A stretch of 11,200 nucleotides of DNA from a virus. Lineage: Duplodnaviria; Heunggongvirae; Uroviricota; Caudoviricetes. The stretch is taken from IMG/VR virus record IMGVR_UViG_2529292736_000009, positions 1-11,200 of that record. One strand, given 5' to 3'. The translations under genes and the position numbers were made by a program. The notes beneath the pieces were generated by a model. It was given only the letters and a program-made list of their open reading frames with translations, had not been told where the DNA came from and searched no databases. Shown in pieces: positions 1,264-1,310 of this stretch. Within the stretch, counting starts at the first letter, position 1; every line of letters begins with the position of its first letter.

Positions 1264-1310
1264 GAAACAACGAGACACCACGACGAACAACGGCGAACAA
1301 TCTGGAACAA
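1264..1310. repeat. Direct repeats of GAACAA, last three phased at exactly 10 bp (1285, 1295, 1305) plus GAAACAA at 1264
   Basis: Seen directly: cgtGAAACAAcg...cgacGAACAAcggcGAACAAtctgGAACAAac, between int stop and alpA promoter region. Confidence 0.5.

Follow-up and report, generated by a model that had tools for sequence, protein, structure and literature searches.

A phased six-unit array between int and alpA as a candidate AlpA operator in a capsid-forming phage satellite of Escherichia coli

In a capsid-forming, PICI-type phage satellite located between mcaS and smrA of E. coli, we observe six 10-bp units directly behind the integrase gene, all ending in ACAA except for one that ends in ACCA. 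From their sequence and by analogy with known systems we are on balance inclined to read this distal array as a candidate operator on which AlpA would bind cooperatively to autoregulate its own gene. Since the same motif lines both ends of the island, a docking track for AlpA is its most likely role.

The window, i.e. the whole stretch of 11,200 nucleotides analysed here, carries in addition to the features of Table 1 a DUF4222 gene and genes for SSB, an E-type major capsid protein, a decoration protein and TerS. E. coli TW10590 (locus L001) holds a 99.9% identical copy of the island between the sRNA gene mcaS and smrA, and when aligned with the K-12 empty site it defines ATTAT(T/A)AATATCGTGA as the att core. 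The attL site precedes the int ATG by 174 bp and falls just beyond the edge of the window. The left junction of the island is ~75 bp from mcaS (L001 10642-10737; Rfam 117.6 bits), which the insertion parts from smrA; McaS was the sole match of the Rfam scan and is outside the island. Following alpA, a 396-aa ORF (1838-3028) has no Pfam match and is not annotated by RefSeq, which instead places an opposite-strand YlcI/YnfO-family gene (2545-2850) inside it.

Table 1. Positions of the genes, repeats and att elements discussed in the text (window coordinates unless a locus is named)
Feature	Position	Strand	Remarks
int	1-1230	+	P4-type tyrosine integrase; Arm-DNA-bind_3 N-domain and Phage_integrase catalytic domain
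Distal array	1251-1310	+	six 10-bp units ending in ACAA (unit 3: ACCA)
IHF-consensus match AATCAACTTTTTA (WATCARNNNNTTR)	1337-1349	-	27 bp downstream of the distal array
Sigma-70-like match TTGCCA-17-CACAAT	1506-1534	+	consensus match only
Proximal array CCATAAACAC CCTGACACAA TCCGACGCAC CACAACACAA TAGGACACCA	1514-1563	+	weaker, same orientation as the distal array; tentative
alpA	1597-1785	+	GTG start; 62 aa; Pfam Phage_AlpA, E = 2.7e-18
RepA-type helicase gene	4214-5629		13-bp x6 iterons directly after
P-arm array TTGTGTC, TTGTTCC, TTGTTGC (units CTTGTGTC TATTTGTTCC GCATTGTTGC)	10352-10380	-	10-bp spacing; distal-array motif on the opposite strand
12-bp doublet GGTGTAGTTAAT x2	10395-10418	+	probable Int arm-type sites, P arm
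attR core ATTATAAATATCGTGA	10484-10499	+	junction with the K-12 empty site
P'-arm array CTTGTTCC AACTTGTTCC ACGTTGTACC CCCTTGTGCA	L001 10913-10950		four units just upstream of int, outside the window
Second doublet GGTGTAGTTAAT x2	L001 10956-10979		outside the window, 22 bp before the int ATG
TTGTTC arrays of HK97-type relatives	L004 18568-18605; L005 18903-18950; L003 16982-17010		

The earlier note had reported GAACAA at 1285, 1295 and 1305 with a related GAAACAA at 1264, and placed them between int and alpA; the positions are exactly right, and so is the placement. The array is thus real, but it extends further than the three or four units then described, two being added leftward, and in register it reads ACTGACACAA CGTGAAACAA CGAGACACCA CGACGAACAA CGGCGAACAA TCTGGAACAA. 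Tandem Repeats Finder finds a period-10 array at 1254-1300. It is the phasing that is not random and not the number of hexamers: GAACAA is not over-represented in the window (14 matches vs 8.2 ± 2.7 in shuffles), whereas at least three ACAA/TTGT cores spaced 9-11 bp apart are expected 0.032 times per 11.2 kb according to Markov shuffles. The conserved part of the unit does not correspond to the hexamer either. In the position weights of 26 distinct arrays it consists of ACAA (positions 7-10, 1.4-2.0 bits) and a G three bases upstream (position 4, 1.0 bit), with 0.26-0.5 bits for the other positions. Two of the units read TTGTTCG on the opposite strand.

The motif was correctly said to be unlike that of the GTGACA array at the right end (9858-9905), which consists of five units in 10-bp phase between the last ORF and the P arm. 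The latter array has four units in the TW10590 island (L001 20639-20678) and three in an otherwise unrelated classic PICI (L012 11206-11235), and is absent from the lambda-capsid-type relatives L006 and L007. Another repeat, six tandem copies (98% matches) of the 13-mer AAAAGTGGGGAGT at 5629-5706, directly follows the RepA-type helicase gene. This repeat, and not the distal array, which we considered and rejected for the function, probably provides the replication-origin iterons of the island.

The int-alpA region was matched in about 1100 of 5426 E. coli genomes and at 68 further IMG/VR loci, in islands inserted at smrA, ilv/yifB, roxA-phoQ and tqsA. The diversity was taken from these two sources; a scan of genome contigs with Int gave one locus only and an alignment-based IMG/VR scan no additional AlpA clades. 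In the comparison across related islands for which the earlier note had called, the repeats are kept in every relative examined, the distal array being present with five to seven phased units in 56/56 distinct int-alpA spacers. The copy-number change that was examined (L056) is the gain of exactly one 10-bp unit, and the register is exact throughout. A short invariant core within divergent spacers whose register is kept argues for selection on the periodic core and not for shared ancestry alone. The AlpA-2 islands (AlpA-1 and AlpA-2 are 56% identical) have a non-homologous int-alpA spacer, yet a 10-bp array follows int there as well, with AATATCG/AGTTCG-type units of different appearance in direct orientation.

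What had been overlooked is that the reverse complement of the motif, TTGTnnC, is found in 10-bp phase in both att arms (Table 1), and it is here that the best hint as to the bound protein lies. The arrays upstream and downstream of int are oppositely oriented, so that int is bracketed by inverted arrays. In the five loci scanned, phased arrays on the island are confined to both arms, the stretch following int and, in HK97-type relatives, the region upstream of the capsid operon; one more three-unit run (L005 3373-3394) belongs to flanking prophage DNA, off the island. As their seventh base, the arm units have C where the island encodes AlpA-1 and G in the two lineages with AlpA-2, irrespective of the doublet described below; all AlpA-2 arm units read TTGTTCG. 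In the distal array the seventh base is C in 74% and G in 23% of cases. Resting on three lineages, this covariation is suggestive only. As a separate observation, the array of the HK97-type capsid-forming relatives comprises three to five TTGTTC units in 10-bp phase, directly after a terminator and upstream of the capsid/packaging operon. It is possible that it constitutes an AlpA-dependent late promoter; the window has no equivalent.

In each arm the phased array is followed by a doublet of the 12-bp repeat GGTGTAGTTAAT, which is found only in the arms. The two repeat types must be divided between Int and AlpA, the only other conserved recombination protein, and comparison of three lineages indicates how. 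In the classic PICI L012 the doublet is unchanged and the Int N-domain nearly identical, while AlpA is only 56% identical. In L114, where AlpA is 98% identical to that of L012, the doublet becomes TGTGTGGTCAGT x2 and the TTGT array stays; the Int of this island is 68% identical overall, with an N-terminal arm-binding part that has clearly diverged, as judged by eye on the alignment. The doublet thus tracks the Int N-domain across three lineages. It also matches the annotated arm repeats of P4, whose record lists 12-bp doublets for each arm under the name 'attP arm sequence repeat', among them one beside the int start, and for these two reasons it is probably the Int arm site. The helper-embedded PICIs (HE-PICIs) lend further support through a parallel motif, tgTGTATTGCan x2, a 12-bp co-oriented tandem doublet on either side of the attP centre (about 81 bp upstream, 132 bp downstream), for which Int arm domains or AlpA were proposed as binder (PMC10111431). 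The doublets studied here lie about 88 and 145 bp from the attP centre. It is to them, and not to the distal array, that the HE-PICI motif corresponds, and phased TTGT arrays are not described in that article.

These results bear on the three functions offered in the earlier note, integrase autoregulation, arm-type binding and activator binding. The last, with AlpA as the activator, is the best supported, while arm-type binding is weakened because the doublet fits Int better. One could still imagine the units to be extra arm-type sites for the Int N-domain, so that Int bound there would control its own expression, keep alpA repressed while the island is integrated or pair with the inverted array that precedes int. 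The occurrence of the motif in both att arms would suit such a role, as would the fact that window-type and L012 islands share a conserved Int N-domain as well as conserved arm arrays, and the indifference of Pint to AlpA; moreover, the lambda arm sites P'1-P'3 are likewise in tandem, about one turn apart. However, the distal array is separated from the attL core by about 1.43-1.49 kb that include the int gene, and it is the doublet that changes together with the Int N-domain in L114 and resembles the P4 arm repeats. In addition, phased TTGTTC arrays stand upstream of the HK97-type capsid operon, where no role of Int is known, and the motif matches the experimentally defined excisionase sites of KplE1. 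We therefore consider extra Int sites an unlikely explanation.

Functional data from EcCICFT073 are directly relevant to the region upstream of alpA. In this island AlpA activates a PalpA-lacZ fusion and on its own induces Int-dependent excision and replication, while a Pint-lacZ fusion is unchanged by AlpA. The primers used to build this PalpA fusion (pJP2038) correspond to positions 1199-1219 and 1634-1654 of the window, and their sequences identify the EcCICFT073 spacer as the L005 type. The fragment accordingly extends from the 3' end of int (1199) to codon 19 of alpA (1654), which places the array inside AlpA-responsive DNA. The IHF-consensus match that follows the distal array is present at the same place in 54 of the 56 distinct spacers, with variable N4 positions; the window holds three such matches where 0.94 are expected. 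Closer to alpA, the proximal array overlaps the sigma-70-like matches, and in one lineage it has a 10-column gap with GGGAACAAT ACGACACAAT AAGACACC still there. The promoter scan near alpA returned two overlapping weak sigma-70 matches only; TTTGCCA is invariant in all spacers. Two promoter candidates picked by eye, TTGTAC-16-TAAAAA (1371-1398) and TTGATT (1313), were dropped since their -10 regions are not conserved. The terminator scan found none after int, and a reading of the array as a terminator was rejected.

Phased CGAAC/GTTCG units are a feature of all three non-homologous alpA upstream regions. In the third lineage (L106, L115, L118 and L114) alpA is immediately preceded by a terminator-like hairpin whose loop contains two GTTCG units at a distance of 10 bp; in L114 this loop is inverted (CGAAC). 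Within the alpA leader of the window, positions 1401-1436 contain an A-run, GGCGTAAAA ... TTTTATGCC and TTTG, forming an inverted repeat in which relatives show paired G-C/A-T changes. It resembles a terminator of minus-strand transcription, in which case an antisense RNA would run opposite the alpA leader; for the leader inverted repeats (window 1372-1446, 14 variants) no consensus structure was obtained with RNAalifold.

AlpA is a winged-helix protein of the excisionase type (AF2 model, pLDDT 89.9). Its best fold matches are the GIsul2 excisionase 8C3T (TM 0.79), RdfS, TorI, BldC and Pukovnik Xis; a literature search on PDB 8C3T yielded nothing pertinent. Apl, Cox, Xis, BldC and RdfS bind direct repeats spaced by one turn, often at att sites and promoters, and the AlpA of PICMIs has been proposed to be an excisionase. 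The distal array agrees with what is expected of an excisionase-bound array in that it has at least three direct repeats in the same orientation, a conserved one-turn spacing, an excisionase-type protein encoded by the same element and its motif in an att arm.

The closest precedent is TorI of KplE1 (CPS-53), for which mutagenesis defined the cores GTTCG, GATCG and GTCCG in attL sites I1-I5 (Panis et al., PLoS Genet 2010, PMC2951348). In K-12, sites I3-I5 (ttacaGTTCG tcatgGTTCG cttcaGATCG) are exactly 10 bp apart and adjoin the -35 of PintS. These sites occupy the interval from the att core to the IntS arm sites beside the int ATG, and IntS shares the Arm-DNA-bind_3 domain of the island Int. 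TorI also regulates transcription, and on the opposite strand units of the present island read TTGTTCG/TTGTTCC. The two systems nevertheless differ in several respects. Pint is repressed by TorI but unaffected by AlpA, which activates its own gene; the two proteins are 26% identical over 42 residues, TorI having no Phage_AlpA match; and the TorI sites are in the att arm, whereas the distal array is outside the arms, downstream of int.

A comparable layout can be recognized by eye in P4, where a 10-bp-phased run of GTCCTG/TTCCGA/GTCCGT/ATCCGG comes right before the doublet beside int. The P4 motif is TCCG, in contrast to TTGT here; P4 also has a long distance between int and vis and lacks an array after int. 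Vis, the AlpA homologue of P4, reportedly serves as both excisionase and late-promoter regulator and binds boxes I and II between int and the core. The Cox boxes of P2 are direct-repeat operators of a dual-function excisionase, whose activities include activation of P4 PLL. For Apl of phage 186, PMC7498355 describes an operator at pR-pL and att, composed of direct repeats one turn apart and bound cooperatively. Apl and Cox thus share with the role proposed for AlpA the principle of a small winged-helix protein acting at both an att site and a promoter, but their family differs from that of AlpA, and Apl represses.

Taken together, the conservation of the array, its motif in the arms, the existence of a separate candidate for Int and the TorI precedent in a homologous module favour AlpA as the protein bound. 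The same preference follows from the presence of the array in the PalpA reporter together with the triggering of Int-dependent excision by AlpA alone, from the phased CGAAC/GTTCG units of the three alpA upstream regions, and from the binding of one-turn repeats by excisionase-type proteins. There are also observations against it. Pint-lacZ does not respond to AlpA in EcCICFT073 despite the four-unit array just upstream of int, and the arm arrays are nearly alike in AlpA-1 and AlpA-2 islands although the two proteins are only 56% identical. The conserved core amounts to just 4 bp, TorI is only distantly related to AlpA, and the post-int array of the AlpA-2 islands has a different look. Finally, about 200-290 bp separate the array from the only promoter-like matches downstream of it, a long distance for a simple activator.

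With AlpA as the ligand, regulation might proceed as follows. AlpA would serve as recombination directionality factor and would also activate its own gene, the first transcription of alpA being triggered by the helper phage. AlpA would then polymerise cooperatively on the six head-to-tail sites, one per helical turn, and an IHF-type bend downstream could bring the resulting complex to the alpA promoter region. Stimulation of this promoter would produce a switch-like positive feedback, and AlpA might subsequently occupy the oppositely oriented TTGTnnC arrays of attL and attR to direct Int towards excision.

Another protein could be bound instead of AlpA, such as a host response regulator recognizing tandem 10-11-bp half-sites, another regulator of the island or the helper-phage factor responsible for switching on alpA. 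Induction of alpA does depend on a factor from the helper, the inducible reporter contains the array, OmpR/PhoB-type regulators do bind phased direct repeats, and cross-talk of excisionases between elements has been reported. On the other hand, the arrays are kept by islands with different cargo, and the DNA-binding proteins common to the lineages compared are Int and AlpA. The motif is present in both att arms, with a seventh base that tracks the AlpA allele in three lineages, and no specific host motif was matched. We thus regard a different ligand as improbable, to about the same degree as extra sites for Int. Still more doubtful is a bolder scheme in which the array would act as a sensor of the helper: excisionase-type proteins that an induced helper prophage produces early would bind it and start alpA, AlpA would take over, and an AlpA filament bridging the inverted arrays around int would couple the alpA switch to excision.

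We also observed that the 11-mer TTGCGATTTTT is present both after the int stop codon (1236-1246) and after the P-arm doublet (10419-10429), which hints at a duplicated arm module that has either gained int by insertion or lost it by deletion; the pair is only loosely kept in relatives and was not retained as evidence of an arm duplication. Very improbable, finally, are functionless repeats, whether a slippage-prone remnant of a duplicated att arm or intrinsically bent DNA: the 11-mer pair does hint at an old duplication and the copy number varies, but the core is invariant in 26 distinct arrays while the spacers diverge, every variant keeps the register, and the non-homologous AlpA-2 spacer again carries a phased array at the same place.

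The array also does not resemble the element (ABE) of the Pseudomonas AlpA-type antiterminator. Pseudomonas AlpA is a larger, Q-like protein with a C-terminal HTH (contact residues 128-142) and its ABE is a single 6-bp element of the GGGACG type between -35 and -10, whereas the AlpA of the window has 62 aa and a winged helix only, and the array is multi-copy and upstream.

A phased excisionase-binding array is a well-known kind of element. Neither this particular array nor an assignment of the array and the doublet of PICI att sites to different proteins is described in the literature searched, which likewise defines neither the DNA target of AlpA nor how helper phages turn AlpA on. AlpA is the master switch of the Gram-negative phage-inducible chromosomal islands. 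Its candidate operator would comprise the six ACAA units, the weaker proximal set and the matching arrays of attL and attR, and can be told apart from the probable integrase arm sites. Defined in this way, the candidate operator makes both the autoregulation of AlpA and AlpA-directed excision directly testable.
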